Positions 3,372 through 43,744 of a stretch of 64,000 nucleotides of DNA are shown in pieces. Source of the stretch: an uncultured candidate division Zixibacteria bacterium. Lineage in GTDB: Bacteria > Zixibacteria > MSB-5A5 > GN15 > FEB-12. Below the pieces are notes generated by a model. That model was not told the origin of the DNA and ran no database searches. It was given only the letters and a program-made list of their open reading frames with translations. How positions within the stretch are numbered: the first letter of the stretch is position 1; every line of letters starts with the position of its first letter. Position numbers and translations under genes: made by a program. The DNA is taken from contig CAVTJJ010000002.1 in assembly GCA_963735035.1 (NCBI GenBank), positions 32,001 through 96,000 of the forward strand, read 5' to 3'.

Positions 3372-3916
3372 GCGCCCCTCACTACTTCGATACGGCAGCC
3401 GCCGATCGATTCGAGAAACTTACCGGTTGTCTCGGCGTCGAACTTAGGATCTTCGGCTTCGATGCTGACAAAGAAGGCGTCGTCGGAAAACCGCTTGAAG
3501 TTCTCCGAATAGAAATTGCCGTGAAACCATTGCGGCAGACGATTCAGAATTAGCATCCCGAACACGGCCCCCAGTGCTGCGCCAAGTATTGTCAAGCCAA
3601 AGGTGACGATTATGAACGCCTGCCAGGAGAAATAGGGTTTGCCGGCGATTACCATCGGATAATCCACCGCACTGGTCCACCACTGCAACCACATGGCAAA
3701 CGTTCCTCCCAGGGCGCCACATATTCCGGCAATGAAACCAACTTTCGACCGATTCAGCCCCATGGCGGCGTCCATCCCATGAATCGGGAAAGGTGAATGA
3801 CAGTCAAATTTCTTATAACCGGCATCGCGTACCTTTTCAGCCGCCTGGAGCAGCTCACCGGCAGAACCGAACTCAGCCAGCACCGAATAGATTCTCTCCT
3901 TTGCCGCCGTTGCCAT
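3368..3916 (-). CDS. actD: Alternative complex III subunit ActD (DUF3341)
   Basis: Start MATAAKE at 3916, coupled to the actC stop. Motifs HSPFPIHGMDAAMG, DYPMVIAGKP and SDDAFFVSI. Confidence 0.9.
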   Translation of the reverse strand: MATAAKERIYSVLAEFGSAGELLQAAEKVRDAGYKKFDCHSPFPIHGMDAAMGLNRSKVGFIAGICGALGGTFAMWLQWWTSAVDYPMVIAGKPYFSWQAFIIVTFGLTILGAALGAVFGMLILNRLPQWFHGNFYSENFKRFSDDAFFVSIEAEDPKFDAETTGKFLESIGGCRIEVVRGA

Positions 3917-5298: not shown

Positions 5299-5305
5299 TT
5301 GAGTT

Positions 5306-27051: not shown

Positions 27052-28272
27052 TTACACCACTGCGCGTACGCGCACACGCGTACGAATGACTTTCGCCAAA
27101 CGTTCGATCCCCTCCACAATTTGCACTTCAGTCGGATACGAGAAGTTCAGCCGCATCTCGTTACGCCCCGAACCGTCAGCATAGAAACCGGCGCCGATCA
27201 CATACGCCACTTTCATCTCCACCGCCGCATGAATCATCTCCACCGCATCCATATTCTCCGGCAACGTCACCCAGAGAAACATCCCGCCATCCGGCTTGGA
27301 CCAGGTCAATCCATCGATACCCGTGAGATTTGCGTCGAGCGCCTTCAACATCACACTCACTTTACGAGCATAGAGTTCCTTGCTCACCTGAATCTGCTTC
27401 TCGACCATGCCGTCCTTTAGAAGATGCGCGCACAGGATCGACGAAAACGCCGACGTGCACAAGTCGGTCCCCTGCTTGGCCATGATAAGTTTGTCGAGAA
27501 CTTCGGGCGGAGCGACAACCCAGCCTAGTCTGAAACCGGGCGAGAAAATCTTCGAAAACGTCTTCAGTTGGATCACCCGATTGTCCGAATCGAGCGAACG
27601 CAACGACGGCAGCAATTCACCCTTGAACCGAAGTTCCCGATAGGGACTGTCCTCGATTATGGGAAGATCGAAGCGAGCCGCAAGTTGAAGCACTTTCTTC
27701 CGCCGTTCGAGCGAGAGGTTACGCCCCGACGGATTCTGAAAATCGGGAATGAGATAGATGAACTTCGGCTTGCGACCCTCCGTCGTGAGTTGATCCAAAG
27801 TCAACTCCAGCTCGTCGGGAATAATGCCATCGGCGTCCATGGACACGCCGTGGAAATCGGCCCCAAACGCACGGAACGCCTGAATCGTGCCGACATAGCT
27901 GGGCCGCTCGATTATGATCGGGTCGCCAACATCAATGAAGATCTTTGAGAGCAGATCGAGCGCCTGCTGCGACGAAGCCACCACAATAATCTCCTCGGGC
28001 GCCACTTTCTCGCCCTGCCGCGCCGTGAAAGCGGCAATCTGTTCTCTGAGAAACGGCTCGCCCTCGGTCGGGCTATATTGCAGCGCGAGCCTGCCGTTTT
28101 CGCGCACTGCCTTGACCGCGGCCGCCTCGACCGCCTCGTAGGGAAATATCGCCGGATCGGGCAGCCCACCCGCAAAAGAGATGGTCCCCGGGGTACGGGT
28201 CAGTTTGAGAAGTTCTCTGATTTCACTTCGCCTGAGCCGACTGGCCATCGTAGAAAATCGAAAATCTGTCAT
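27052..28272 (-). CDS. PLP-dependent class I/II aminotransferase (LysN/AvtA-like)
   Basis: SEIRELLK, ISFAGGLP, LQYSPTEG, IPDFQNPSG, EDSPY, TFSKIFSPGFRLGW. Confidence 0.93.
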   Translation of the reverse strand: MTDFRFSTMASRLRRSEIRELLKLTRTPGTISFAGGLPDPAIFPYEAVEAAAVKAVRENGRLALQYSPTEGEPFLREQIAAFTARQGEKVAPEEIIVVASSQQALDLLSKIFIDVGDPIIIERPSYVGTIQAFRAFGADFHGVSMDADGIIPDELELTLDQLTTEGRKPKFIYLIPDFQNPSGRNLSLERRKKVLQLAARFDLPIIEDSPYRELRFKGELLPSLRSLDSDNRVIQLKTFSKIFSPGFRLGWVVAPPEVLDKLIMAKQGTDLCTSAFSSILCAHLLKDGMVEKQIQVSKELYARKVSVMLKALDANLTGIDGLTWSKPDGGMFLWVTLPENMDAVEMIHAAVEMKVAYVIGAGFYADGSGRNEMRLNFSYPTEVQIVEGIERLAKVIRTRVRVRAVV

Positions 28273-28459: not shown

Positions 28460-29848
28460 ATGAATACAAACTGGAAACCATCGTTCGACATCAATAGCGA
28501 ATTGCTCTATCTGGCCATCGCCAATGCCATTTCCGATGATATCGATCGCGGCGAACTGGCTATGGGCTTCAAGCTCCCTACCCAGAGAGACCTGGCCGAC
28601 CAGCTTGGCGTGGCGCTTGGGACCGTGACCCGCGCCTACTCCGAGGCCGAACGTCGCGGTCTGATTCGCGGCGATGGCCGGCGCGGTACGTTTGTCGGAG
28701 CACATCAGACCGGACGGTCATTTCTGACTGCCATGTCGGGCCAAGTTCAACCCGGTATCGACCTAAGCAAGAATCACCCGGCGTACGGTCTCGATCCCGA
28801 TTTGGGAGCCGCGTTGCGGACATTGTCGCGAAGCCCACAGGCTCAGGAACTCTTGCAGTATTCACCAGCCGCCGGGATGATGCGTCACCGCGAAGTCGGC
28901 GCTGCCTGGCTACGCTCTTTGGGCGCGCAGTCTACCGCCGATTCGGTGTTCGTGACCACCGGGGCCCAGCACGCACTGTCGGTGATCTTCGCCGCCGAAA
29001 CGCGCCGTGGTGACATTATCGCCGCCGAGCAGTACACTTATCCGGGTGTCCGCGCTTTAGCCGAACAGCTCGATCTTCAGGTTGTAGCGGTCCCCACCGA
29101 CGAGTTCGGCATCCTGCCGGACGCACTCGATTCGATTTGTCGTCAGAAAGCTGTCCGTCTGCTCTACTGCAACCCGTCACTCAACAATCCGACCAACGTG
29201 ATATATCCTCTCACGCGTCGGAAAGAGATTGCAGCTGTCGCGGCTCAGCATGACTTGATGATCATCGAAGACGAGATCATGCGACCCCTGCTGGATGACC
29301 ACCCAGGCTTCATCGCCGACATTTTGCCCGACCAGACCCATCTCGTCCTGTCGGCTTCGAAAGCGGTTGCCGCCGGGCTGCGGGTTGGGTTCATTCAGGC
29401 GCCGCTCAAATCGCACCAGCGTTTGATCGACAGTCTGAACGCTTCCTGCCTGGGAGCTCCGCCCCTCATGACTGAGCTATTTGCCCTTTGGTTCAAGGAC
29501 GGCACCCTGGAAAAGACCATTGAACGCCGTCGTCATGATTCGGCAGCACGCCAGAAAGTGGCTGAGGAGACTCTGGGCGGATTCAGGCTTCACACTCACC
29601 CCTGCAGCTATCATGTGTGGCTGGAACTGCCTGAAAAATGGAGCGGCGAACGTCTGGCCGTGGAAGCGCAGTTGCGTGGCATCGCGATTACCCCGGCTGA
29701 AGTGTTCGCGGTTGACCGAAAATCCCCGCTGGGCGCGGTTAGACTCTCACTGGTCTTGCCTCCCAATTTGGAGATTCTGAGGTCAAGCCTCAAAATAGTG
29801 GCCGATTTACTCCACGGAGCCGCCGGGCATCACATGGCAACCGTGTAA
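28460..29848 (+). CDS. MocR/GabR family PLP-dependent transcriptional regulator
   Basis: GntR wHTH (KLPTQRDLADQLGVALGTVTRAYSEA) fused to an aminotransferase domain (NNPT, EDE, SKAVAAGLRVG); divergent from the aminotransferase gene. Confidence 0.94.
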   Translation: MNTNWKPSFDINSELLYLAIANAISDDIDRGELAMGFKLPTQRDLADQLGVALGTVTRAYSEAERRGLIRGDGRRGTFVGAHQTGRSFLTAMSGQVQPGIDLSKNHPAYGLDPDLGAALRTLSRSPQAQELLQYSPAAGMMRHREVGAAWLRSLGAQSTADSVFVTTGAQHALSVIFAAETRRGDIIAAEQYTYPGVRALAEQLDLQVVAVPTDEFGILPDALDSICRQKAVRLLYCNPSLNNPTNVIYPLTRRKEIAAVAAQHDLMIIEDEIMRPLLDDHPGFIADILPDQTHLVLSASKAVAAGLRVGFIQAPLKSHQRLIDSLNASCLGAPPLMTELFALWFKDGTLEKTIERRRHDSAARQKVAEETLGGFRLHTHPCSYHVWLELPEKWSGERLAVEAQLRGIAITPAEVFAVDRKSPLGAVRLSLVLPPNLEILRSSLKIVADLLHGAAGHHMATV

Positions 29849-30035
29849 CATCCTGACTCATATTCAGTTACCGACGGTAAGTGGATTGATGGAACAGATA
29901 GATTTGTCCTGTGTAAACAAGAAACTGATACCTTACGGAGTTGCGCATTTCGTATAATGCCAATCCCGTGTCGCCATATCCGCATAGATTCGGCGGGAGA
30001 CGACCTAACAGCGATGTGTCCGCGAGATATTGAAT

Positions 30036-31235
30036 ATGAACGAACTGAACGCCAGCAATAGTGACCTGTCCGCTCTCAAGATAGACCGTTCCACACGATC
30101 CGGTCCGCCCGGACGTTGGAAGAGATGGCTCCACCTGCTATGGATTCTCGTGCCGGTGGTAGTCTATTTCGGCTATGACGTGGCCATTAAGAAAGTCACG
30201 CCTTCACTGAAAGTGAAGACCGATCAGGTGAAGTACCTGACCGGCGCCGAAGCGTCCGTTGAACTGGTAGCCACAGGTTATGTAGTCGCTCAAGTCAAAG
30301 CCGATGTTTCTGCCAAAGCCACCGGCCTGCTCAAGCGGCTGACAGTCGAAGAAGGCGACACCGTTCATGCCGGCGAAATTCTTGGCGAGTTGGACAACGA
30401 AGACTTGAAAGCCGCCCTGGATTTGGCAAAAGCTAATTTGAGGCAAGTACAGGCCGATTCGGTAGCCGCCGATTTGAATTTCAAGCGCCAGCAGAGCCTG
30501 GTCGAAAGAGGTTTCGCGTCCGAAGAGGCGCTGGAAAACGCCACCGCTACCTGGCATCGTGCTATCGCAAACATTGAGGCTATGAAAGCCGGCGTAAAGG
30601 CCGCCGAAGTTGCTTACGAAAATAGCTTCATCCGTGCTCCTTTCAGTGGGACGGTCCTGACCAAACAAGCCGATATCGGCGAGATGGTTGCCCCGTTCGC
30701 AGCGGCAACATCCTCTCGTGGAGCGGTTGTCACAATCGCCGACATGACTTCGCTTGAAGTCGAAGCCGACGTCTCGGAATCGAACATCCAGAAAGTGATC
30801 GTGGGCCAGCCTTGCGAGATCGTCCTCGACGCCTATCCGCAGGTCAAATACGACGGCTACGTGAAGAAGATCATTCCTACCGCAGATCGAACCCGAGCCA
30901 CGGTCATGACCAAGATAGGTTTCAATGCTATCGATGGTCGGGTACTGCCGGATATGTCCGCCCGTGTGAATTTCCTCCCATCAAAGAACGCGGCCGCGCC
31001 CGCCGTACAACCGGTGTTGGTTGTCAACAGCGATGCGGTTACGCAGCGACTGGGTCAGTCCGTGGTGTTCAAAGTCGAGCAAGACCTGGCGAGGCAGATT
31101 GTCATAGGGGCGGGACGCAAGCTCGGTGACGTCCGCGAAGTTCTATCCGGTCTCAAGGCCGGGGACAAAGTCATTCTCTCTCCCCCCGGCGGACTTCAGG
31201 ACGGGGATAAAGTCGAAGAGTCACAGACAATTTAG
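30036..31235 (+). CDS. Efflux periplasmic adaptor (MacA-like membrane fusion protein)
   Basis: LVATGYVVAQ, IRAPFSGTV, LEVEADVSESNI. Confidence 0.92.
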   Translation: MNELNASNSDLSALKIDRSTRSGPPGRWKRWLHLLWILVPVVVYFGYDVAIKKVTPSLKVKTDQVKYLTGAEASVELVATGYVVAQVKADVSAKATGLLKRLTVEEGDTVHAGEILGELDNEDLKAALDLAKANLRQVQADSVAADLNFKRQQSLVERGFASEEALENATATWHRAIANIEAMKAGVKAAEVAYENSFIRAPFSGTVLTKQADIGEMVAPFAAATSSRGAVVTIADMTSLEVEADVSESNIQKVIVGQPCEIVLDAYPQVKYDGYVKKIIPTADRTRATVMTKIGFNAIDGRVLPDMSARVNFLPSKNAAAPAVQPVLVVNSDAVTQRLGQSVVFKVEQDLARQIVIGAGRKLGDVREVLSGLKAGDKVILSPPGGLQDGDKVEESQTI

Positions 31236-31250
31236 TTCAGGTTGAGAAAT

Positions 31251-31925
31251 ATGAGTGATGCAATCGTTCAGGTTCGAGAGTTGTTCAAGTCGTACTACCG
31301 TGATTCATTGGAGATTCCGGTTCTACACAATATCAATCTGGAGATTCCCCAGGGTCAGTTCGTAGCGCTCATGGGGCCTTCCGGATCAGGCAAAACGACA
31401 TTGTTGAACCTGATAGCCGGCATTGACAGACCAACCTCCGGCAGTCTCTCCGTAGCCGGTGAGGAAGTTGCAAGCCTGAGTGACGGCAATCTGGCCAAAT
31501 GGCGGTCACGCCACATCGGCTTTATCTTTCAGTTCTATAATTTGCTGCCGGTTCTGACCGCATTCGAAAATGTCGAGCTGCCATTACTACTGACCAGCCT
31601 TTCGCGTAAAGAACGTCGGCAGCACGTGGAATCGGCTCTCGGGGTTGTCGGCTTGTCCGACCGGGTGAAACATTATCCCCGCCAACTCTCGGGTGGTCAG
31701 GAGCAGCGCGTAGCGATTGCCCGCGCTATCGTGTCCGATCCTACCCTCTTGCTGGCCGATGAGCCCACCGGCGACTTGGACAAGAATTCAGCGGAAGAAA
31801 TCATGACCTTGATGACCCGACTGAATAAGGAGTTCAACAAAACCATTGTAATGGTTACCCACGATCCACGGGCCGCAGAAAAGGCGTCCATCATCCGCCA
31901 TCTTGACAAAGGGGAACTTCAATAA
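31251..31925 (+). CDS. ABC transporter ATP-binding protein (MacB/LolD-like)
   Basis: GPSGSGKT, FQFYNL, LSGGQEQRVAIARA, LLADEPTGDLD. Confidence 0.95.
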   Translation: MSDAIVQVRELFKSYYRDSLEIPVLHNINLEIPQGQFVALMGPSGSGKTTLLNLIAGIDRPTSGSLSVAGEEVASLSDGNLAKWRSRHIGFIFQFYNLLPVLTAFENVELPLLLTSLSRKERRQHVESALGVVGLSDRVKHYPRQLSGGQEQRVAIARAIVSDPTLLLADEPTGDLDKNSAEEIMTLMTRLNKEFNKTIVMVTHDPRAAEKASIIRHLDKGELQ

Positions 31926-33082
31926 TGAAGCTTCTCAAGCTTATTTGGAAGAACGCCGGTCGCCACAAGCTACGGACTTTTCTTACCGTTCTTGGGTTAG
32001 GACTCGCCGTGATGGCGTTCGGTTTGATTCGATCTCTCGTCGATGCCTGGTATGCTGGCGCTCGGGCCGCATCCCCCAACCGGCTGGTCACACGGAATGC
32101 GGTCAGCGTGGTTTTTCCCCTGCCTCTGGCCTATCGGGATCAAATTCTCAAAGTGGACGGCATTGAAGACATCACTTATGGCAACTGGTTCGGCGGCATC
32201 TACGTGGATCCCAAGAATTTCTTTCAGCAGATCGGCGTGGAACCGGAGTCATTTTTCAGAATCTGGCCGGATTTCGTAATTTCCCCCGATCAAAAGGAGG
32301 CGTTTAGAAAGGATCGACGTGGCGCTGTCGTCGGCCAGGCTCTCGCGGATCGTTTTAGCTGGAAGGTCGGCGATCAAATAGCTCTAACCGGAACGATCTT
32401 TCCCGGTGACTGGACGTTCGTTATCGACGGCATCTACCACGGCGCCAATCCCGATGTTGACGAGACCACCTTCATATTCAATTTCGCCTGTGTTGACGAA
32501 CGAATGAGACAAGATTCGCCGGGGCGAGCTGGTCAGATCGGGTGGTACACACTCAAGATAAGCGATCCGACACGTGCCGCCGAAATCGGCTCTAAGGTAG
32601 ACGCCCTCTTCGAAAACTCCTGGGCCGAAACCAAGACCGAGACAGAAAAAGAATTCACTTTGAACTTCATCGAAATGAGTAGTGCCATTATAGTCAGCCT
32701 GCGCATAGTCTCTTACCTGATCGTCGGTGTTATATTTCTCGTCCTTGCCAACACGATGGCCATGACGGCGCGCGAGCGAGGCGCCGAGAACGCCTTCATG
32801 CGCACGCTCGGATTCCGAGCTCATCACCTGGTCGGCCTGATCCTGGGCGAATCAACGCTGGTGGCAGTGTTCGGGGGACTGGTCGGGACAGGACTCCTTT
32901 TGCTCGGCGGCAATTTGGTGGCGACAATGGTGAAGGACTACTTCCCGTCGTTCGCGGTCGCCCCCCCGACCTATATCGCCTGTCTTCTGATCGCGCTGGC
33001 CATCGGCGCGGCGGCGGCAATCTTCCCGGCCGTCCGAACCCTTCGGGTGAACATTGTCGACGGACTTCGAGTGGTCGACTAA
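31925..33082 (+). CDS. MacB/FtsX-like ABC permease
   Basis: RHKLRTFLT, large periplasmic loop, NTMAMTARER, C-terminal TM helices. Confidence 0.9.
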   Translation: MKLLKLIWKNAGRHKLRTFLTVLGLGLAVMAFGLIRSLVDAWYAGARAASPNRLVTRNAVSVVFPLPLAYRDQILKVDGIEDITYGNWFGGIYVDPKNFFQQIGVEPESFFRIWPDFVISPDQKEAFRKDRRGAVVGQALADRFSWKVGDQIALTGTIFPGDWTFVIDGIYHGANPDVDETTFIFNFACVDERMRQDSPGRAGQIGWYTLKISDPTRAAEIGSKVDALFENSWAETKTETEKEFTLNFIEMSSAIIVSLRIVSYLIVGVIFLVLANTMAMTARERGAENAFMRTLGFRAHHLVGLILGESTLVAVFGGLVGTGLLLLGGNLVATMVKDYFPSFAVAPPTYIACLLIALAIGAAAAIFPAVRTLRVNIVDGLRVVD

Positions 33083-33101
33083 GCGAAATCGAGGCTTGAA
33101 G

Positions 33102-34262
33102 ATGATTCCTCCGAACTATGCAGTACGAAATATCTCCAAACACAAAGTAACCTCGCTTCTCACGATGGCCGGGCTCAGTCTCGTGGTCTTTGTCTTTGCA
33201 GGGTCTCTGATGTTGTCAAACGGATTGAATGAAACCATGGTGGCAACGGGACAGCCTGACAACGTCTCGTTAATCCGCAAGTCGGCTCAGACGGAAGTCA
33301 TGTCGATCGTGTCGTACGAACAGGCTCAGATAGTCAAGGCGGATCAGGACGTAGCCCGCGACCAGGACGGCAATCCGCTCGTAGCCAGTGAAATATACGT
33401 CCTGATTAGTTTGCCCAAACGTGACACACAGGATGAAGCCAATATCGTTGTACGTGGCGTTGGCCCCACATCCTTCGCGCTTCGCCCGAATGTGAAGTTG
33501 GTCGAGGGTCGAATGTGGACAGATCCCGGCTCGGAAGTCATCGCCGGATTATCGGCTTCGAAACGCTACACCGGCTGTGCCGTGGGTGAAAAGCTGAGAT
33601 TCGGAGCCCGGAATTGGACCGTAGTGGGGATTTTCGAGGCCGGTGGCACAGGCTTTGAATCGGAAATCTGGTGCGATATCAATCAGGCCTCCGATGTCTT
33701 TCGGCGCCCGGTCTATTCATCGTTGTTGGCCCGCCTGACCGACACGACGCGGTTCGAGGCCTTCAAGGCCCGGGTAGAAGCCGACCCGCGCCTGACGCTC
33801 GACGTGAAGCGGGAGAAGGATTACTACGCGGCACAGACGCAGATGTTGGGCACCTTCATCAGTATCACTGGAACGGTCATCAGCATAGTCTTTTCTCTCG
33901 GTGCGATTGTCGGCGCCATGATCACCATGTACGCCGCTGTCGCGAACCGTACCCGGGAAATCGGAACCCTTCGGGCTCTTGGCTTTAACCGTTGGAGTAT
34001 CCTGACCGTCTTTCTCTTCGAATCGCTGTTGATAGCCCTGGCGAGTGGCCTGATTGGGATAGGCGCCGCTTACTTTCTGAATTTCCTGCAAATCTCGACG
34101 ACCAACTGGGGCACCTTCTCCGAAATTGCCTTCAACCTCCAACTTTCGACCGGAATCGTCCTGAAGACCCTGGCGTTTGCCCTGATAATGGGGCTGGTCG
34201 GAGGCTTCCTGCCATCGGTTCGTGCCTCACGGCTCCGCATTGTCGATTCTCTGCGGGGCTGA
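33102..34262 (+). CDS. MacB/FtsX-like ABC permease
   Basis: Start MIPPNY at 33102; ITMYAAVANRTREIGTLRALGF. Confidence 0.9.
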   Translation: MIPPNYAVRNISKHKVTSLLTMAGLSLVVFVFAGSLMLSNGLNETMVATGQPDNVSLIRKSAQTEVMSIVSYEQAQIVKADQDVARDQDGNPLVASEIYVLISLPKRDTQDEANIVVRGVGPTSFALRPNVKLVEGRMWTDPGSEVIAGLSASKRYTGCAVGEKLRFGARNWTVVGIFEAGGTGFESEIWCDINQASDVFRRPVYSSLLARLTDTTRFEAFKARVEADPRLTLDVKREKDYYAAQTQMLGTFISITGTVISIVFSLGAIVGAMITMYAAVANRTREIGTLRALGFNRWSILTVFLFESLLIALASGLIGIGAAYFLNFLQISTTNWGTFSEIAFNLQLSTGIVLKTLAFALIMGLVGGFLPSVRASRLRIVDSLRG

Positions 34263-34342
34263 TAGGTCTGTGCGCCGTTGACAGATAGCTGTCGTGCGAG
34301 TCGCACGTCCGGAGTGTGCGGCTCAATCAGGACGTTTTTGAT

Positions 34343-34393
34343 GTCTCATCCATGAGACTTTTCTTGACATTTTGGTCCAAATGGTTGTATAAT
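34343..34393 (+). promoter_or_regulatory. Consensus sigma70 promoter with an upstream palindromic operator candidate
   Basis: TTGACA (34364-34369), 18-nt spacer, TATAAT (34388-34393); inverted repeat GTCTCAT-CC-ATGAGAC at 34343-34358. Confidence 0.75.
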
Positions 34394-34781
34394 CACCAAA
34401 GAGTTGCGGAATTTGCGGTGGTACGACTTCTCGCCTATACACCCCGCATAGATTTACTTAATTCGTTCTGACCGTTTACGGTATCCGTCATCGGGGGTCA
34501 GACAAATGCATCCAGCGGACTGCTTCGCCCAACTCAGAACAAGAAGTGGTTGCTGGATATGTCTGACTTTATCAGAACCTGGTCAAGAGTCTCCTTCACT
34601 GCCGGAACTAATTCCATTGACGGCTTCTGCCTCCAGCAATTACCACCCTTCTGCTTCCTAACAAACAAGACAGATTATCCCGAAGCGCGGGCTAAGACTT
34701 CGCTTCCGCATGATGCGGTGTGCGAGGTATTGGCGCCGCAAACCGCCCAGTGGGCCTCACACCCTTTCACGGAGGTTCGTG

Positions 34782-34886
34782 ATGATTTTCTTGATTGAGC
34801 CGAACTCAATCCGTCCCCCCTTCTGCCACAAGTGCTCCTTGTTCTGCAGCAAGGAAATTGGACTGTACGGCATTGACCCGACCTAA
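34782..34886 (+). CDS. RiPP precursor peptide 1 (34 aa)
   Basis: GGAGG RBS at 34771. MIFLIEPNSIRPPFCHKCSLFCSKEIGLYGIDPT-TAA; paralogous to the next two ORFs. Confidence 0.88.
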   Translation: MIFLIEPNSIRPPFCHKCSLFCSKEIGLYGIDPT

Positions 34887-34934
34887 TCCGGGTAGATCGC
34901 GAATTCAACTTAATTAGAAGAGTTCGCATGACTT

Positions 34935-34963
34935 GTGAGGGAGCGGTCCTGCCGTTCCCTCAC
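34935..34963 (+). promoter_or_regulatory. Stem-loop after precursor 1
   Basis: GTGAGGGAGCGG-TCCTG-CCGTTCCCTCAC (12 bp, one G-U pair), no U-tract. Confidence 0.65.
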
Positions 34964-35092
34964 CCTGATAACTATGAGTAAGTTGCATTGATACTGTACC
35001 ATCTGGGATGGGTCACGACTGAAGAGCAATTTCAGACGTGAGCTTCCCAGCTAATCGGCCACATGGCCCGCACCCTCACATGGAGGTCCGTG

Positions 35093-35188
35093 ATGATCTT
35101 TTTGATTGAGCCGAATTCGGTTAACCCGCCGAACTGCACAACCAAGTGCAGTCCGAAGAGATACCCGTTGTATGGTATCGATGTTTGA
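35093..35188 (+). CDS. RiPP precursor peptide 2 (31 aa)
   Basis: GGAGG RBS at 35082. MIFLIEPNSVNPPNCTTKCSPKRYPLYGIDV-TGA. Confidence 0.88.
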   Translation: MIFLIEPNSVNPPNCTTKCSPKRYPLYGIDV

Positions 35189-35205
35189 TGAGTGCTTTTG
35201 AGTAC

Positions 35206-35232
35206 GCGGGGAACGGCCCAGCCGTTCCCCGC
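35206..35232 (+). promoter_or_regulatory. Stem-loop after precursor 2
   Basis: GCGGGGAACGGC-CCA-GCCGTTCCCCGC, perfect 12-bp stem. Confidence 0.7.
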
Positions 35233-35366
35233 CTCTAGAATCCGAAGACATTTGATTTAGGTAGAAGCAACTCCGGAACGAGTCACGATTGAGCCAATGG
35301 TTTCAAGATTGGCTTGGCCCGGCTAACCGGCCCAAAAGGCCTGAACCAACCATAGGAGGTTTTTCA

Positions 35367-35468
35367 ATGATCTTCTTAATCGAACCGAACACGGTCAATC
35401 CGCCTTGCGTCGTTAAAGTTTGTGCGAGAATTGTACCGCTCTACGGCATCAAGCCGATCGAGATCTGA
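35367..35468 (+). CDS. RiPP precursor peptide 3 (33 aa)
   Basis: AGGAGGT RBS. MIFLIEPNTVNPPCVVKVCARIVPLYGIKPIEI-TGA. Confidence 0.88.
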   Translation: MIFLIEPNTVNPPCVVKVCARIVPLYGIKPIEI

Positions 35469-35509
35469 TCTCGGTAGCTGATTTCTACCGATCTCGGTAG
35501 ATAAGCTGT

Positions 35510-35542
35510 CGTTAGGGAGAACGATCTTCGTTCTCCCTAACG
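35510..35542 (+). promoter_or_regulatory. Stem-loop between precursor 3 and the first radical SAM gene
   Basis: CGTTAGGGAGAACGA-TCT-TCGTTCTCCCTAACG, perfect 15-bp inverted repeat. Confidence 0.75.
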
Positions 35543-35569
35543 CTGAATACAACATTTAGTGCGACCAGT

Positions 35570-36925
35570 ATGCTGACTTTATCTTCATATAATTACTTCG
35601 CCCCCTGGCACGACGGTTATTTCCTTGCGTACAATGCCCGTTCGGGAGCAGTTGCACTGCTCAACGAAGAGAATCAACGAACCTTTCAGGTACTGCTTCA
35701 AAAGATTAGCGACCATCAGACGGAACAACTTAACCCTGAAGAGCAGGAGTTGTTGAAACAACTGCAGTATGGCAAGTTCGTTCACACGGTCGAACCGCCT
35801 GAAATCGACGTATTGAAGTTCGAAAGCCAGCGCGCCAGGTACGACATGACCTCGCTGGGGCTTGTCATCGCCCCCACCATGGCCTGCAACATGGCCTGCA
35901 CGTATTGTTATGAAAGTTCGCGCGGCGGTCGCATGACAGCGGCGACGATGGACTCGGTGGCGCAACTGATAGAAAAGCAAGCCAGGAGCCTGAAGGATTT
36001 GGCCCTGACATGGTATGGCGGCGAACCCCTCCTGGCCATGAACATCATAGAAGATTTGACTTCAAGGATCCTCCGTCTGACGGAACAATACGAAATCAAG
36101 TACACCTCGGCCATTATTACCAACGGCTATCTCCTGGATAAAGAGACCGTCGATCGTTTGCGACAGCTCCACGTGACTGCCGCCCAGGTCACTCTTGACG
36201 GCCCGGCTGCAATTCACAATCGCAAACGGCCCCTTGTGAATGGCCGACCTTCATTTGACACTATCGTTGAGAACTTGAAGTATGCGACCACGAAACTCGG
36301 GATAGGCATCCGAGTCAACGTCGACAAGGAATTCTCACTGGACACAATCGGTCAATTGCTTGATGAACTGGACGGCGCAGGGCTTCGTGATCGTCTGGGC
36401 GTACATTTCGCCCTGATGGAGCCCGCCACGACCGTGTGCTCCAATATCAGTGAAAATTGCTATGATACGGCCGGATTTTCAGCCGTCGAGACCGAATTCT
36501 ATACCCTGCTCCTGGAGCGGGGCTTCCGAATAGAGAAACTCCCGTCACCCATGATGGTGGCCTGCATGGCGCAACTGGTTAATGCCTATGTGGTGGACCC
36601 CGACGGTGACCTGTACCGGTGCTGGAATTACATCGGCGACAAGTCGCACGCCTGCGGCAACATCGCCCAGGAACTTAACCCCGTGCACCCCGAGTTCATG
36701 CGCCTGTTCTCCTTTGATCCCTTTGAAGATAACAAGTGCCGCGAATGTAACGTTTTGCCTCTTTGCCAGGGCGCGTGTCCGTCGCGACGCTTTGACCGTA
36801 ATGTCACAGCCGATCAGCAGTGTGAAAGCTGGCGGTACAACTTGGAGCCGATGCTCGACCTGATCGCCCGGTCGCGCTGGCGGCAAATGCAAAACGCCAA
36901 CCAGGAAGCGAAGAAACCAGTATGA
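35570..36925 (+). CDS. Radical SAM/SPASM peptide maturase (Cys-rich peptide/thioether-forming type) with an N-terminal RRE-like extension
   Basis: IAPTMACNMACTYCYE, WYGGEP, QVTLDG; SPASM motifs CMAQ...DGDLYRCW...GNI...CRECNVLPLCQGACP...C; about 90-aa N-terminal domain (LSSYN...LAYNARSGA...LQYGKFV). Confidence 0.9.
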   Translation: MLTLSSYNYFAPWHDGYFLAYNARSGAVALLNEENQRTFQVLLQKISDHQTEQLNPEEQELLKQLQYGKFVHTVEPPEIDVLKFESQRARYDMTSLGLVIAPTMACNMACTYCYESSRGGRMTAATMDSVAQLIEKQARSLKDLALTWYGGEPLLAMNIIEDLTSRILRLTEQYEIKYTSAIITNGYLLDKETVDRLRQLHVTAAQVTLDGPAAIHNRKRPLVNGRPSFDTIVENLKYATTKLGIGIRVNVDKEFSLDTIGQLLDELDGAGLRDRLGVHFALMEPATTVCSNISENCYDTAGFSAVETEFYTLLLERGFRIEKLPSPMMVACMAQLVNAYVVDPDGDLYRCWNYIGDKSHACGNIAQELNPVHPEFMRLFSFDPFEDNKCRECNVLPLCQGACPSRRFDRNVTADQQCESWRYNLEPMLDLIARSRWRQMQNANQEAKKPV

Positions 36926-38064
36926 GCGATTTCAAATTCTTTCCGCACTACGTAGTCTGGGAGACTACTTTTGCCTGCAACATGCGTTGTGTTCACTGCG
37001 GCACGTCCGCGGGCAAGCAACGCCCGGATGAACTTACCACCAAAGAGTCACTCGCCCTGATCGATGAACTGGCTGATCTGGGCACGGCGCACCTGGTTCT
37101 TTCCGGTGGCGAGCCGCTGCTTCGCAAAGACTGGCGCGAGTTGACCAGGAGATCCAAACAGCGTGGCATCGGCACCTACATGATCACCAATGCCTTCGCC
37201 ATTACCCCCCAGATTGTCGACGACATGCTGGCCGCCGGGATGGACAAGATCGGCATCAGTTTTGACGGCACCGAGAAGACTCATAACTATATCCGCCAGC
37301 GCGATGACAGCTATGCCAAAGTCATCAACGCGTTCAAGTGGTGCAACGAACGTAAACTGAGATTCCAGGCGGTGTCGCAGATCTCCAATATCAACATCGG
37401 CGAAATGGATCAGATGCGCCAGATTCTGATCGACAACGGCGCCGTCGATTGGCGCATCCAGATGACCACGACCACCGGTCGCATGCGCGGCCTGAGCGAC
37501 ATGGTCCTGTCTATTCCCAACTACACAAAGTTGATCGATAAGTGCATCGAATTCCGCAATCTCGACGGCGTGAAGATCGATCCGGGCGAAAACATCGGCT
37601 ACTTCGGCTGTAAGGGTACCGAACTTATCGACGGCGGCATTTATCTCGGCTGCTACGCCGGCACCAGAGTCGCCGGAGTGGAGTCCAACGGCAACATCAA
37701 GGGATGCTTGTCGATGCAGGAAGACTTTGTCGAAGGCAACATCCGCGATTCCTCGTTCACGGAGATTTGGAATCGGCCCGACGCTTTCGCCTACAATCGC
37801 CAGTTCACCCGCGAGACGGCCGGTGGACCGTGCCGTAAGTGCCATTATCTTCCGTTGTGCCGGGGCGGCTGCACCACGACTTCGTTTGCACAAACAGGTG
37901 AACGAGCCAACAACCCGTACTGCATTCATCGCATTGAGCTCGAAAAAGGTATACAGGCGCCGCCGGATGAACCATATATTGCGGAAATACTGGCGCGGTT
38001 CGAACCACCTGAGGCCGTAGTGACCGATGCTACGCCGCGCTCGACGCCTGATATACCGTCATAG
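36922..38064 (+). CDS. Radical SAM/SPASM enzyme resembling PlpX/PcpX tyramine-excising spliceases
   Basis: VWETTFACNMRCVHCGTSAGKQRPDELTT, GGEPLLRKDW, GENIGYFG, GCYAG...GVESNGNIKGCLS, CRKCHYLPLCRGGC...NNPYCIHR match the splicease-family motif pattern as I recall it. ATGA-coupled to the upstream radical SAM gene. Confidence 0.82.
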   Translation: MSDFKFFPHYVVWETTFACNMRCVHCGTSAGKQRPDELTTKESLALIDELADLGTAHLVLSGGEPLLRKDWRELTRRSKQRGIGTYMITNAFAITPQIVDDMLAAGMDKIGISFDGTEKTHNYIRQRDDSYAKVINAFKWCNERKLRFQAVSQISNINIGEMDQMRQILIDNGAVDWRIQMTTTTGRMRGLSDMVLSIPNYTKLIDKCIEFRNLDGVKIDPGENIGYFGCKGTELIDGGIYLGCYAGTRVAGVESNGNIKGCLSMQEDFVEGNIRDSSFTEIWNRPDAFAYNRQFTRETAGGPCRKCHYLPLCRGGCTTTSFAQTGERANNPYCIHRIELEKGIQAPPDEPYIAEILARFEPPEAVVTDATPRSTPDIPS

Positions 38065-38145
38065 CAGACAGACTATAATGCCACTTCGGAACTGTCACGA
38101 CGTCAGACTTCTTTGCACACCCGGTTCCGGGTCAGGTGTATCGGA

Positions 38146-39903
38146 ATGACCAGTCTGATCGCCAAGTTCGGACGATTGTGGGGTTACATTCGTCCGTATC
38201 GTTATCACCAGGCGCTGATGCTCCTGGTGATGGCTATCCTGGCCGTCCTGGTCATAGCCTTGCCGGCGGCGATCCAGTACATGATCGACACCCTGATCCC
38301 GGGGTTGATCGCATCGAGTTCCAACGGGTTCAATTTCCGGCCGCTCGTTCTCTTCTGCCTCTTCCTGGTATCGGTATATCTTGCAGACATATTCTTCGCC
38401 TGGGTGAGGGACTACCTCTCAGGCTACATCGGCGCCCGCATCATTCGCGACCTTCGCTCCCAGCTCTTCGCGCATCTCGAACGCCTGTCGCTGAAGTTCT
38501 TCCAGGAACACCGGGTGGGAGAAGTGATGTCGCGGCTGCTTTCTGATGTCGGCCGTGTGCAGGACTTGTTGTCTTCCACGCTCATGGCCTTGATCACCCA
38601 GGCCCTCATGCTGGCCGCGATCCTCGCATACCTTCTGTCGATCAACTGGATGCTCACTCTGGTCGCTGTGATACCGGTTCCGCTTTCGATCATCTTGACT
38701 AATGCGTACGGCATCCGCTTGAATTTCCTCGCCCGGCTCATTCAGGAGACCCAGGCCGCTCTCTCGGGCCGTCTTCAGGAATCCCTGATGTCGGTCAAGA
38801 CCATCAAGGCGTTCGGCCAGGAAGACCGGGAAAAGAAGAAGTTGGACGACGTCCTCGAGACGCTCACCCACGTGCTGGTCAAGAACAGTTGGATGAATTC
38901 GCTGGCCGTCAACGTGGTCAATTTCTTCAACCAGATCGGCCCGATCGTGGTCCTGGCATGGGGCGTTTATCTGGTAGTGGCGGGCGAGATGAAGATGGGC
39001 CAGTTGATGGGTTTCTACATCCTACTGACTTTCCTTTATTCCCCTATCCAGGGTTTGGCTCAGTCGTTCCTGCAAATCCAGACCGCGATGGCCTCGGTCG
39101 ATCGCGTGTTCGAATACCTGGACATTCCCCCAGCAGTGGTCGAAGACCCAAACCCCGTCACATTGTCGCAATTCAAAGGTGACATTGAGCTCTGTCAGGT
39201 CCGGTTCGTCTACGAAGATTCCCATTTTAGCGTCGATGACTTCTCCTTGTCGATTCATGCCGGTGAAAAAGTTGCGTTCGTGGGGCCTTCAGGCGCAGGC
39301 AAGACCACCATTGCCAACCTGATCCTCAGGTTCTATGACCCCGACCGCGGGCAGATAACTCTGGATGGTGTTGATCTTCGAAGGCTCCCAATCAAATTCC
39401 TTCGCGACCAGATCGCCCTCGTAGATCAGGACCCGCTGTTGTTCAAGGGAAGCATTCGAGAAAACATCGCCTACGGCCGACCTGAGGCGACTCAGGACGA
39501 AGTCGAAGCGGCCGCCCGGGTGGCAAACATCCATGAATTCATCATGTCACTTCCGCGGGGGTACGAGGCTGAAATTGGCGAGCGCGGCGTGACCGTATCG
39601 GGCGGCGAGAAACAGCGCCTCTGCCTGGCACGGGCGATTTTGACTGATCCGAAGATTCTCATTCTGGACGAAGCCACGTCGGCGCTCGACTCGATGTCGG
39701 AACGATTGATTCAGGATTCACTTGCGAAGATTCTAAAGGGCAAGACGGCGATCATTATCGCTCATCGCCTCGCGACGGTCCAGAATGCCGACCGGATCGT
39801 GGCGCTTGAGTCCGGCCGCATAGTAGATCAGGGCACGCACGACGAGCTGACCGCCCGCTGCCCGCTCTATCGTGACCTCGCCGCGAAACAGTTGTTGGTT
39901 TAA
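38146..39903 (+). CDS. ABC exporter (fused TM and ATPase domains, no C39 peptidase domain)
   Basis: Six-TM-type domain, GPSGAGKT, VSGGEKQR, ILDEATSALD. Confidence 0.93.
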   Translation: MTSLIAKFGRLWGYIRPYRYHQALMLLVMAILAVLVIALPAAIQYMIDTLIPGLIASSSNGFNFRPLVLFCLFLVSVYLADIFFAWVRDYLSGYIGARIIRDLRSQLFAHLERLSLKFFQEHRVGEVMSRLLSDVGRVQDLLSSTLMALITQALMLAAILAYLLSINWMLTLVAVIPVPLSIILTNAYGIRLNFLARLIQETQAALSGRLQESLMSVKTIKAFGQEDREKKKLDDVLETLTHVLVKNSWMNSLAVNVVNFFNQIGPIVVLAWGVYLVVAGEMKMGQLMGFYILLTFLYSPIQGLAQSFLQIQTAMASVDRVFEYLDIPPAVVEDPNPVTLSQFKGDIELCQVRFVYEDSHFSVDDFSLSIHAGEKVAFVGPSGAGKTTIANLILRFYDPDRGQITLDGVDLRRLPIKFLRDQIALVDQDPLLFKGSIRENIAYGRPEATQDEVEAAARVANIHEFIMSLPRGYEAEIGERGVTVSGGEKQRLCLARAILTDPKILILDEATSALDSMSERLIQDSLAKILKGKTAIIIAHRLATVQNADRIVALESGRIVDQGTHDELTARCPLYRDLAAKQLLV

Positions 39904-40130: not shown

Positions 40131-40652
40131 CTACGGACTCACGCTGGGCAATTTCTCGAACGTGTATCTTCTGCCGCTATCAGGATCATCCACGTAGAAG
40201 AACAGCCGAAGTGGACCAAAATTGAGATCCATCAACCCATACGACATGTAAATGTTGACTACGCACCGGTCCACATGGTCGTTCAACTGCTCAAAATCAA
40301 GTTCAACAGAAGACCGTTCACTGGCCTTCGTGATCAGAGACCATGTTCCAAAACCTGAGATTGATCGCGCGCTATCAAGAGTAAGTGGTAGAAGGATCGA
40401 GGGGAGATGCTCCGCTCTGAATTTTCCATCTCCCCTAATCTCGATTAGTGGCTCCTCCGTCAAGAACAAAGTATCGCCGAATGGCAGAACGACGAAATTG
40501 GACGTCTCTTTTGAGGGCATCCACATACCAATGATCTGACTCTTGTCAGGGGAGCCGCATCCTATCACCACGATTCCTGAAATCGCTATTGCGGAAAAAT
40601 GGGCGCGATACGATTGAATATCCATATGTTCTTTCCTTACCGACACTCGCAC
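40131..40652 (-). CDS. Hypothetical lipoprotein
   Basis: Hydrophobic N-terminus ending VIGC, followed by 'IIGMW'. True start probably MDIQ. Confidence 0.55.
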   Translation of the reverse strand: MRVSVRKEHMDIQSYRAHFSAIAISGIVVIGCGSPDKSQIIGMWMPSKETSNFVVLPFGDTLFLTEEPLIEIRGDGKFRAEHLPSILLPLTLDSARSISGFGTWSLITKASERSSVELDFEQLNDHVDRCVVNIYMSYGLMDLNFGPLRLFFYVDDPDSGRRYTFEKLPSVSP

Positions 40653-41888: not shown

Positions 41889-42437
41889 ATGGTCAGGAGA
41901 ATCACACTAGTAATGGCCTTAGTTGCCATGACCGTCGCGGTGGTCGTTGCCGGCGATATGCAGAAGGCCACAACCGGGACACCGTCGATGGAGGCAATGA
42001 AGGCCGGATTGATGAAGTGCTACGTGTGTAAGAACATCGCGGCACACATGGACGAGTATGGCCCCATGGGCATGGAGGCCGTCAAGCTCAACGACGGACT
42101 TGCTATTCGTCACTGGGTCAGAAGCGGTGACCCGAAGAGCGTGGCGGCGTTACATACCGCTTGCATGGCCGCTGGCAAAGCCGGCGAGGAGGCCATGAAT
42201 TTCACGGATGAACAGGCCAAGACGCAGTTGTGCGAGCAGTGCCAGGCGATTCGGGCTGCGGCCAAAGCCGGCGCCCGTGTGAGCAATGGTGCGACGTCCG
42301 ACGGCGATATTATGGTGCTGACCTCCCCAGACCCCGGTGTTCAGATGCAATTGTCGTCGCTGGAGCAAAAGTGCGCCATGATGGCAGTTATGATGGACAT
42401 GCCGGCCAAGGGAAAGCCGACGGCCCAGAAGAACTAG
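41889..42437 (+). CDS. Secreted Met/Cys-rich hypothetical protein
   Basis: AAGGAG RBS, signal peptide, CYVC and CEQC pairs, Met-rich. Confidence 0.7.
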   Translation: MVRRITLVMALVAMTVAVVVAGDMQKATTGTPSMEAMKAGLMKCYVCKNIAAHMDEYGPMGMEAVKLNDGLAIRHWVRSGDPKSVAALHTACMAAGKAGEEAMNFTDEQAKTQLCEQCQAIRAAAKAGARVSNGATSDGDIMVLTSPDPGVQMQLSSLEQKCAMMAVMMDMPAKGKPTAQKN

Positions 42438-42508: not shown

Positions 42509-43744
42509 TTAGAAATCGACGCCCAGCCGGGTCAGAAACGTGTCGCTGTGGTCGGAACCTGTCCGGTTGGCTCCGACCGGTGTGCGATAGGTGGTACGAT
42601 TAAGCTCCATCGCCACATACGCAACCGTTCCGGCCTTCTCCACAACCGTGTAGCGACCACCCAGCGAATATCGACCCCTGGTGACTCGTGCGGAGAAGTA
42701 CGACGCCATCCCGTCGTCCTGAAAACTCTCAAACCGAAACGCGGTCGTAAACGGATGCGACCGGGCAAACAACCTTCGAGCCCGGTACAAACCCCGTCGC
42801 GTGAATTGGCTGGGTCGATAGACGAACGAATACGCGGCCGTTAAACTTAGCACACTCTCTCGGAATTCGCGATCGGCGTCCACATACCGCTCCCGACGCA
42901 AGGCCTTGATGTACTCGGCATCGAAAGAGATGCTCTTTGCCATTGGAACAACGATGTTGGTTGCTAATTGAACCACCACGTTGCGTCGAACATGCCCCGG
43001 CTCGCTGAGAACCGCCGCCATCAGGGTTACGGACGAATCCACCGACGAAAATATTCCCGAAGCCACCCATGAGCTGATCTGAGCGGCCGTATCCGGCGCT
43101 CGCATGATTTCGGCGGTATCGAACAGCCGGGATTGGAACAGGTGGTCGCTCGACTCGGCGCCCTTGTAGACCGTCAGCGATGCGTCCAAAGTCGGACCGG
43201 CTTGAATACCGGCCGTCAACCCCACTTTGTTGACCTCATAAGCGTCCTTGGCCATCGGGTCGCTTATCAGTTGATTCTCAAAGACGCCAAAAGGCTGACT
43301 CCTTTTGCCAAATACGGCATAAGGTCCTGAGGCAAAGCCCTGAACATCGATGTGCGCTTCGTCGATAGCTACCCGCTGATCGCCTTCATTGACAAAGTCA
43401 TCCAGCCATTCCGAATTTAGCACGACGGTCGATGAAACATTCTCGGCCAGAGGCGATTCAAGAGCAATTTCGATAATACGCACGTAGAGGTCGGATGTGG
43501 CTCGCTTTCCCGAAGGCCGAATGGGAGTACCGTTGTTCCACCTCAGTTCCCCCTGAAACGTTCCGGACAATTTCAATCTGTCTGTCGGCGACGTGTTCTT
43601 AGTAGTCGTAGAGTCAGATGCGGTGGCTCCAGCCACAGGACTTGCCTTTGCCGTGTAAGCACGTGCCCCAATTAGAAACGTACACGTCGCAACTGCGACC
43701 AGTGTAGTGGACCTAAACAACAACATCTTCTCTCTCCCATCCAA
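42509..43744 (-). CDS. Outer-membrane beta-barrel, LbtU-family-like porin
   Basis: Signal peptide, LSG...SDLYV...IDEAHI...FGKRSQPFGVFENQLISDPM, terminal Phe (LGVDF). Confidence 0.7.
   Translation of the reverse strand: MDGREKMLLFRSTTLVAVATCTFLIGARAYTAKASPVAGATASDSTTTKNTSPTDRLKLSGTFQGELRWNNGTPIRPSGKRATSDLYVRIIEIALESPLAENVSSTVVLNSEWLDDFVNEGDQRVAIDEAHIDVQGFASGPYAVFGKRSQPFGVFENQLISDPMAKDAYEVNKVGLTAGIQAGPTLDASLTVYKGAESSDHLFQSRLFDTAEIMRAPDTAAQISSWVASGIFSSVDSSVTLMAAVLSEPGHVRRNVVVQLATNIVVPMAKSISFDAEYIKALRRERYVDADREFRESVLSLTAAYSFVYRPSQFTRRGLYRARRLFARSHPFTTAFRFESFQDDGMASYFSARVTRGRYSLGGRYTVVEKAGTVAYVAMELNRTTYRTPVGANRTGSDHSDTFLTRLGVDF

Follow-up and report, generated by a model that had tools for sequence, protein, structure and literature searches.

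Three cysteine-containing precursor peptides with a common putative leader heptad and a Tyr-Gly tail in a radical SAM gene cluster of an uncultured Zixibacteria bacterium

Introduction

Cysteine-containing peptides modified by radical S-adenosylmethionine (rSAM) enzymes with a SPASM domain are a well-studied group of peptides that are ribosomally synthesized and carry post-translational modifications (RiPPs). PqqE and SuiB each form a cross-link at an aromatic residue within a short motif that is conserved, and in the triceptides an Aromatic-X-X motif is modified by a cyclophane-forming rSAM/SPASM enzyme. MftA ends in Gly-Val-Tyr. To our knowledge, almost no natural products are known from Zixibacteria, Ignavibacteria and Calditrichota. 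The present analysis concerns a stretch of 64,000 nucleotides (the window, whose numbering is used throughout) from contig CAVTJJ010000002.1 of an uncultured candidate division Zixibacteria bacterium, in which three short precursor genes precede the genes of two rSAM/SPASM enzymes, rSAM1 and rSAM2, and of an ATP-binding cassette (ABC) exporter.

The closest characterised relatives of rSAM1 act on cysteine. In the crystal structure of CteB with CteA, the leader extends the sheet of the RiPP recognition element (RRE) at strand β3 (PMC6231123). CrpC, the enzyme of family TIGR04463, has been shown to install thioethers in the archaeal Cys-rich protein CrpA, and use of an RRE is predicted for it (PMC13692751); PapB joins Cys with Asp or Glu residues (PMC9413430).

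The precursor genes

The three precursor genes lie on the forward strand at 34782..34886, 35093..35188 and 35367..35468 and encode peptides of 34 residues (MIFLIEPNSIRPPFCHKCSLFCSKEIGLYGIDPT), 31 residues (MIFLIEPNSVNPPNCTTKCSPKRYPLYGIDV) and 33 residues (MIFLIEPNTVNPPCVVKVCARIVPLYGIKPIEI), which match the family hidden Markov model (HMM) with E-values of 2.8e-12, 1.4e-12 and 1e-9, respectively. The start MIFLIEPN and an LYGI near the C-terminus are common to all three. Each peptide can be divided into four parts. The leader heptad, MIFLIEP in every copy, is followed in peptide 1 by the linker NSIRPPF, the core CHKCSLFC and the tail SKEIGLYGIDPT, in peptide 2 by the linker NSVNPPN, the core CTTKC and the tail SPKRYPLYGIDV, and in peptide 3 by the linker NTVNPP, the core CVVKVC and the tail ARIVPLYGIKPIEI. 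The Cys residues are spaced CxxCxxxC, CxxxC and CxxxxC in peptides 1, 2 and 3. A first-pass annotation, made from the letters of the DNA, had described three open reading frames (ORFs) with constant ends and these same spacings; its coordinates and translations are correct, and all the codon pairs that it quoted from the shared start (ATT/ATC, TTC/TTT, TTG/TTA and GAG/GAA) are present.

A ribosome-binding site, GGAGG or AGGAGG, stands 6-7 nucleotides (nt) 5′ of each ATG, at 34771-34775, 35082-35086 and 35354-35359 for copies 1, 2 and 3. The in-frame extensions 5′ of the three ATGs have no likeness to each other, which argues that the short reading of each ORF is the right one. When the three copies are compared codon by codon, codons 1-8 differ by 3-5 synonymous and no non-synonymous changes per pair and the LYGI codons by 2-4 synonymous and no non-synonymous changes per pair, while codons 9-13 carry 1-3 non-synonymous differences per pair. 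The protein-level selection proposed in the first-pass annotation is thereby borne out region by region, both end blocks differing by synonymous changes only. In the 3.6-Mb genome, a degenerate DNA pattern encoding MIFLIEPN has three matches in forward orientation and none in reverse, and the same pattern written backwards, as a control, is absent. The HMM scan of six-frame translations that the annotation had suggested, here run with the family HMM on the whole genome, singles out the three copies at E-values of 1e-9 to 1e-12, the runner-up having an E-value of 0.62. A chance origin of the three ORFs is excluded; they are real RiPP precursors under protein-level selection. None of the peptides matches a family in NCBIfam at E ≤ 10, and a search of the ESM Atlas with peptide 1 gave no usable match. 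Among sequencing runs, no RNA run was listed as containing the sequence; four DNA runs were listed, with small shares (0.06-0.15).

Sequence features and distribution of the family

The three peptides belong to a family with the pattern M-[IV]-[YF]-L-[IV]-[DE]-P, about seven variable residues, a Cys framework that is mostly CxxxCxxxC, and P-[LMC]-Y-G-[VI]. Its features were derived from 150 distinct sequences, made up of 120 listed profile matches and the peptides of the loci described below. The entropy profile of this set has two constant blocks flanking a variable middle. Positions 1-7 are M, I (112 members), Y or F (129 and 21), L (145), I or V (120 and 29), D or E (123 and 26) and P (all 150), while positions 8-14 are free, with an entropy of 3.0-3.75 bits. 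The first Cys follows after 13-15 residues in 135 of the 150 members. Between one and five Cys residues precede the YG, three of them in 81 members, and the spacing between consecutive Cys residues is x3 in 264 of 329 cases, with free residues in the loops. The second constant block, C-G-I-K-P-[L/M/C]-Y-G-[V/I]-[P/D]-P, comprises about 11 residues, including three after the YG; within it, Pro stands at position -2 in 148 members.

The first-pass annotation had staked its reading on the conservation of LYG and of the Cys residues across the family. Both are conserved: Tyr and Gly are present in 150 of 150 members, at least two Cys residues in 149 of 150, and [LMC]YG[IV] in 27 of the 28 peptides that carry the N-terminal motif in orthologous loci, found by a screen without a tail requirement. 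The sole exception (L008:979-1089) has an intact heptad (MIFLIEPSRV...) and no YG tail, and overlaps the start of the next copy; it is probably a decaying paralogue. The description of the core as hypervariable stands in part. The middle is variable and bears the Cys residues, but the CxxxC(xxxC) framework is fairly regular family-wide, with loop residues that vary; the three window copies are atypical of the family in their unusually irregular Cys spacing.

Orthologues of rSAM1, 49-71% identical, are found in 12 of 40 related genomes and in 12 of the 79 loci returned from a species-representative genome collection, the latter 12 belonging to metagenome-assembled genomes labelled Zixiibacteriota, Ignavibacteria/Ignavibacteriales, Calditrichaeota or unclassified. 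The next homologues fall to 40% identity or less. Two sets of loci were defined: 23 orthologous loci, of which 22 are distinct (L006 and L018 being identical), and 67 loci with a distant rSAM1 homologue, at most 40% identical. Among the 20 distinct orthologous loci having upstream sequence, 19 contain one to three small ORFs of the family upstream. The twentieth, L016 on a Zixibacteria chromosome, has three family copies elsewhere on the chromosome, at two sites; these peptides (L098-L100, at G041:C1:1430835-1431265 and 2498843-2498947) are encoded more than 750 kb from the L016 maturase pair, and in the genome search one of the three matches contains a TAG. Since the L016 maturases have no adjacent precursor, these distant copies would be substrates encoded in trans.

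With a profile of 35 members and a threshold of E ≤ 0.01, 246 protein clusters were retrieved out of 1355 candidates drawn from 5.8 billion proteins. The source names of all 246 are 'hypothetical protein' and none carries a Pfam domain. No model of the family exists in Pfam or NCBIfam. Searches of the full-text literature for the motif strings, for RiPPs of Zixibacteria and Ignavibacteria and for the names of related rSAM peptides gave no description of the family among the matches listed. The motifs are also absent from one supplement of a 2023 rSAM compendium (PMC10288494), whose Figures S25-S30, covering six uncharacterised precursor groups, lie outside that supplement and might include the family. 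The family is real, widespread and unnamed, and to judge from the genomes and loci covered it appears confined to Zixibacteria, Ignavibacteria and Calditrichota.

The probable leader heptad and rSAM1

The rSAM1 gene (35570..36925, forward strand) begins 101 nt 3′ of precursor 3 and encodes a maturase of 451 residues with an N-terminal RRE-like domain, assigned by domain, fold and sequence matches. Its CxxxCxxC motif is at C106, C110 and C113, and nine further Cys residues are invariant. Of the curated NCBIfam models, it passes only the generic SPASM model TIGR04085, with 61.6 bits against a cutoff of 27. CteB is its best solved relative by sequence, the alignment starting at residue 14 (E 1.7e-24), and also the best solved fold (5WHY and 5WGG, TM 0.61-0.68) for the AlphaFold model of rSAM1, which has a predicted local distance difference test (pLDDT) score of 83. 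The cyclopropylglycine synthase TigE ranks second in this comparison, followed by anSME. The N-terminal domain is of the RRE type, with four strands followed by three helices, in which residues 27-31 form the last strand and residues 56-67 a helix. G26 and A27 are invariant positions, V28 and A29 almost invariant ones.

In a model of the complex of rSAM1 with peptide 1, the score is 0.82, compared with 0.02 for the best of three controls; of 157 solved complexes, 116 reach the mark used for such scores, as do 2 of 215 mismatched pairs, counts that apply here approximately. Contact agreement between runs is at least 43%, and the pLDDT of the partner is at least 51. Residues 1-8 of the modelled peptide contact rSAM1 at residues 25-32 in the last RRE strand, at 61-69 in the helix and at 432-440 in the C-terminal helix. 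Further along the peptide, residues 10-18, with the first two Cys residues among them, reach rSAM1 residues 324-333, 351-352 and 403 in the SPASM region.

Evidence independent of the model comes from outside the window family, where a heptad of the same type is found. In 23 of the 67 loci with a distant rSAM1 homologue, the enzyme strand carries small ORFs that are rich in Cys and begin with M-x-[FYW..]-[LIV..]-[IVL]-x-P; on the opposite strand such ORFs are present in 5 of 67. The hosts include Clostridia, Aminicenantes, Ktedonobacteraceae and Collinsella, among others, and the peptides include true Clo7bot peptides, which score 39.8 and 53.9 bits with TIGR04333. When the profile of the window family is compared with that of Clo7bot-type peptides, only the first 11 columns align (E 1.5e-4, probability 51%). 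Since the heptad travels with this type of enzyme while the cores are unrelated, it behaves as a recognition leader should. The very short N-terminal leader of the first-pass annotation is in agreement with the near-fixed positions 1-7, with the distance to the first Cys and with the docking of residues 1-8 in the model. The N-terminal heptad is thus the best-supported candidate for the recognition leader, predicted from sequence and modelling to dock on the RRE of rSAM1.

The Tyr-Gly tail and rSAM2

The rSAM2 gene (36922..38064, forward strand), assigned by domain and fold matches, overlaps the stop of rSAM1 by 4 nt, and the two genes are translationally coupled. Its product, a second rSAM/SPASM enzyme of 380 residues, lacks an RRE, and the cluster encodes no PqqD partner. 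Its best NCBIfam matches, TIGR04103 and TIGR03913, each give 229 bits against cutoffs of 725 and 592. The nearest solved folds are PqqE (6C8V, E 7.6e-18, TM 0.62/0.75) and SuiB (TM 0.58-0.68). An rSAM2 orthologue, 55-73% identical, lies directly 3′ of rSAM1 in 23 of 23 orthologous loci, two of the genes being cut by the end of the locus. Neither an rSAM2 orthologue nor a YG tail is present in the 67 distant-homologue loci. From this strict co-occurrence and from the fold likeness, rSAM2 most likely recognises or modifies the tail P-[L/M/C]-Y-G-[V/I]. As rSAM2 is an RRE-less enzyme with a likeness to PqqE and SuiB, a Tyr-centred cross-link may be guessed as its product.

The first-pass annotation had taken the same tail for a C-terminal splice site, an assignment that the results do not support. 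No conserved peptidase or splicing enzyme was found in the cluster in the window, in nine relatives or in the same-genus relative. A Lon-like gene 5′ of the cluster in L021 was considered as a leader protease and rejected, as it occurs in that locus only. In the related explanation that P-L-Y-G-[I/V] is a proteolytic site, the C-terminal follower would be removed and the product would consist of the Cys core only. This would account for a tail block as constant as the leader and for the residues after the YG, which are few, most often three (38 of 150) or six (57 of 150), and variable beyond position +4. The missing peptidase speaks against it, as do an exporter without a C39 domain and a constant block that, with about 11 residues and three of them after the YG, exceeds a typical cleavage site. 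The strict pairing of the tail with rSAM2 also has a simpler reading, as it suggests a site of modification or recognition rather than of cleavage. Removal of a follower is unlikely, but it would be compatible with an action of rSAM2 on the tail.

Proposed pathway and alternatives

The three ORFs probably encode RiPP precursors whose heptad leader docks on the RRE of rSAM1, whose Cys residues are converted to thioethers by rSAM1 and whose tail is acted on by rSAM2 before ABC export. Residues 1-7 (M-I-F/Y-L-I-E/D-P) would add a β-strand to the RRE of rSAM1, as the complex model and the family comparison suggest, and the free linker of about seven residues would bring the Cys core, whose first Cys is close to position 15, to the active site of the rSAM/SPASM enzyme. 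At this site rSAM1 would most likely turn the Cys residues into intramolecular thioether cross-links of the ranthionine or sactionine type, a role assigned to it because of its kinship with CteB, PapB and CrpC of TIGR04463. In a ranthionine the Cys sulfur is bound to a β or γ carbon of an acceptor residue, in a sactionine to an α carbon. Recognition or modification of the invariant tail would most likely fall to rSAM2, with a Tyr-centred cross-link as a guess, and the product would exit through the ABC exporter. As no dedicated leader protease is encoded, the leader of 14 residues may be retained or trimmed by a housekeeping enzyme. Since the paralogues differ in the number and spacing of their Cys residues, one enzyme set would be expected to yield three different ring topologies.

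Several points weigh against this pathway. Every chemical step in it is inferred. The high score of the complex may reflect likeness to the solved CteB-leader complex and is therefore perhaps not independent support; its calibration counts hold only roughly, since our own alignments were used. The profile behind the 150 members was seeded with peptides picked for both end motifs, so the conservation of the ends among them is partly built in, and the 27 of 28 peptides from orthologous loci provide the independent figure. No Asp or Glu lies between the first Cys and the YG in 105 of the 150 members, and in the window there is one Glu in peptide 1 and none in peptides 2 and 3; an acceptor rule of the PapB type therefore does not apply. 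A single clade underlies the association of the tail with rSAM2, and because the peptide, rSAM1 and rSAM2 are inherited together in it, co-occurrence there does not distinguish function from common descent. A Lys at position -3 from the Tyr, a possible cross-link partner, is present in 110 of the 150 members and in none of the three window copies.

The thioether step has its own alternative, in which rSAM1 would form C-C or C-O cross-links, would carry out an oxidation like that of the anaerobic sulfatase maturases, or would act on peptides whose Cys residues serve only as cluster ligands. The position of rSAM1 under the curated cutoff of every named family is consistent with such a chemistry, as are TigE and anSME next after CteB in its fold ranking and cores from which acidic acceptor residues are mostly absent. 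The nearest characterised relatives, namely CteB, CrpC and PapB (132.9 bits), all make Cys thioethers, however, and within the variable core nothing but the Cys framework is kept. A non-thioether chemistry is, on balance, improbable to about the same degree as the removal of a follower.

Much less probable is a role of the peptides as scaffolds of a small redox cofactor, in the manner of PqqA for pyrroloquinoline quinone or MftA for mycofactocin, in which only the Tyr-Gly would matter and the rest would be discarded. Such a role would fit the invariant Tyr, PqqE as the nearest solved fold of rSAM2 and a score of 148 bits for rSAM2 on the mycofactocin maturase model. That score (148.2 bits) is nevertheless below the MftC cutoff of 265, and the PqqE model gives 105.3 bits against 381. 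In contrast to MftA, the peptides do not end in Tyr; genomes have one to three divergent paralogues with varying Cys cores, the exporter is conserved, and no cofactor-processing peptidase or oxidoreductase is.

That the small ORFs are regulatory leader peptides or repeated non-coding elements before an rSAM operon, as the long untranslated stretch and hairpins around them and the similarity of the 20-50 nt or so 5′ of copies 1 and 2 might suggest, can be dismissed almost entirely, given the synonymous-only changes in both constant blocks, an amino-acid pattern kept across phylum-level lineages while the DNA diverged, a copy number that varies, copies far from the enzymes in one genome and a complex model that supports binding.

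A broader proposal, which we regard as doubtful and offer tentatively, goes beyond the RiPP pathway described above. The cluster would represent a new two-enzyme RiPP class of uncultured bacteria of the FCB group, with a portable leader that has only seven conserved residues and is shared with a Clo7bot-type superfamily, thioethers on non-acidic acceptors, and a hitherto undescribed Tyr-centred cross-link placed by the RRE-less rSAM2 in P-L-Y-G-[V/I]; the constant tail would be the pharmacophore and the Cys rings would vary.

Flanking sequence and neighbouring genes

A candidate promoter of the sigma-70 type, TTGACA-18-TATAAT, matches the consensus at 12 of 12 positions at 34364..34393 on the forward strand, about 390 nt 5′ of precursor 1. 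The searched stretch has one promoter-like site, compared with a mean of 1.1 in shuffled sequence, so that the count is not significant. No convincing ORF lies between the candidate and precursor 1 (34394-34781), and a search of 34200-35650 against Rfam at E ≤ 1 gave no more than two chance matches, both below threshold. The same-genus relative also has a TTGACA about 400 nt 5′ of the first precursor, in DNA that is not alignable.

On the forward strand, a GC-rich hairpin (12-15 bp, no U-tract) follows every precursor gene, with z-scores of -4.6 to -6.5 and none of 200 shuffles as stable. The first hairpin (34935..34963) has a 13-bp stem and a 3-nt loop, and the 92-nt stretch that contains it folds with -37.7 kcal/mol (z -5.2). 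The second is at 35206..35232 (z -4.6). The third (35510..35542, z -6.5), just 5′ of rSAM1, is a perfect 15-bp hairpin formed by a 100% complementary inverted repeat. Such hairpins may raise the level of precursor mRNA over that of enzyme mRNA.

The exporter gene (38113..39903, forward strand) encodes a protein of 596 residues of the MsbA/HlyB type, identified by domain matches, with a transmembrane domain and an ATPase and without a C39 peptidase domain. It is kept 3′ of rSAM2 in relatives; in the same-genus genome the exporter is 72% and rSAM2 73% identical. In five relatives (L016:6463-7896, L018:6480-7910 and L029:6504-7931, also L021 and L024), a radical SAM protein of the B12-binding kind, with a weak match to RiPP C-methyltransferases, is encoded between rSAM2 and the exporter; the window cluster does not have it. 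From this additional protein, some family members are probably also methylated.

Directly upstream of the precursors, domain matches identify genes for an adaptor like MacA and for an ABC ATPase, together with two separate FtsX/MacB permease genes (30030..34262, forward strand); their membership of the cluster is doubtful. No MacA/MacB module was found in the 11.4 kb 5′ of the precursors in the same-genus relative, and the upstream genes differ in every other relative annotated. For these reasons the module is not counted in the system, and the MacAB-like efflux genes were rejected as its export or immunity part.

Further upstream, 28460-29848 encodes a MocR-type regulator of the GntR/aminotransferase fold, whose best match is EhuR, the ectoine-utilisation factor (414 bits, cutoff 480). 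It is divergent to an aminotransferase gene (27052-28272, reverse strand). Four long ORFs of the window have no Pfam match at E ≤ 0.001: 23963-26107 (reverse strand, 714 residues), 42509-43744 (reverse strand, 411 residues), 40131-40652 (reverse strand, 173 residues) and 41889-42437 (forward strand, 182 residues).

The genome of the window also has a second, paralogous cluster (L095, G000:C4:556000-565000, at about 3339-6415), with an rSAM1 paralogue that is 33-35% identical and resembles the Clo7bot and TIGR04463 enzymes below cutoff. It is joined by an rSAM/SPASM enzyme like NirJ2 and MftC. Upstream are two tandem small ORFs of another pattern (KLIQLPG...C...YIIC...), which have no match in NCBIfam.

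Relationship to described RiPP systems

Specific to the present case is an unnamed family of precursors that comprises at least 246 sequence clusters. Its leader is minimal and shared, and its invariant Tyr-Gly tail is tied to a second radical SAM enzyme. A leader with only seven conserved residues, apparently shared across a much wider enzyme superfamily, would be a compact and transferable tag for enzyme-guided cross-linking of peptides. Most cores are acid-free, so that the thioether acceptors, if thioethers form, would depart from the PapB rule.

Each of the described systems shares some features with the window family and differs in others. PqqE with PqqA, and StrB-SuiB with SuiA, compare with rSAM2 only; they are its nearest folds, but the sequence scores of rSAM2 are far below the cutoffs and the substrate motif differs. 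Mycofactocin is set apart by the 148.2 bits of rSAM2 against 265 and by the five to seven residues that follow the Tyr in the window peptides; rSAM2 is not a member. In comparison with the triceptides, there is one Y-G-[VI] unit per peptide, which fits the Aromatic-X-X motif, while rSAM1 is far below the cutoffs of the YhhB, GrrM/OscB, FxsB and AmcB models (77.7 against 445 bits for YhhB), and none of these models is among the 25 best matches of rSAM2.

PapA and PapB (freyrasin) likewise consist of an rSAM/SPASM enzyme and repeated Cys-x3 units, but Cys-x3-Asp/Glu acceptor units of the PapB type are mostly missing in the window family, and rSAM1 reaches 132.9 bits on the PapB model, below its cutoff of 340. 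The substrates of CrpC are large proteins with an N-terminal domain of 47 residues and C-x-x-Q/D repeats (PMC13692751), unlike the window substrates of 31-34 residues with few acidic residues. TIGR04463, the CrpC family, is the second-best NCBIfam match of rSAM1 at 301.1 bits, below the cutoff of 525, and rSAM1 is not a member.

The SCIFF (thermocellin) pair CteA-CteB has the same RRE-rSAM-SPASM order in the enzyme, and the leader strand on RRE β3 is the mode of binding predicted here (PMC6231123). The CteA leader has 18 residues, as given there, compared with about 14 in the window family, of which only seven are conserved. With 93.5 bits on the SCIFF maturase model TIGR03974 (cutoff 425), rSAM1 is not a member of this family. 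We know of no second rSAM enzyme and no YG tail in the SCIFF system.

Clo7bot is defined bioinformatically by the peptide model TIGR04333 and the maturase model TIGR04334, and no paper on Clo7bot or either model was found in the full-text literature. TIGR04334 is the best NCBIfam match of rSAM1, at 343.9 bits and below the equivalog cutoff of 600. The precursors are likewise short and tandem, with 30-50 residues, an M-x-aromatic-aliphatic-aliphatic-x-P start and a Cys-rich core. Unlike the window family, Clo7bot-type peptides have acid-poor cores rich in CxC and CxxC; they lack a P-L-Y-G-[VI] tail, and rSAM2 is missing from their loci. With TIGR04333 (cutoff 31 bits), the three window peptides and two peptides from relatives gave no match at E ≤ 10, while controls from the C. 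botulinum locus scored 39.8 and 53.9 bits.

The window peptides nevertheless fall within a loose Clo7bot-like superfamily, a grouping of our own that is marked by M-x-[FYW]-[LIV]-[IVL]-x-P, a Cys core and an RRE-rSAM-SPASM neighbour. An RRE-bearing rSAM enzyme with a SPASM domain beside a Cys precursor is also the gene arrangement of the ranthipeptides and sactipeptides. Although it falls outside the curated membership of both, the system appears to work like a ranthipeptide or sactipeptide pathway of the CteB/PapB type with a precursor architecture of the Clo7bot type.

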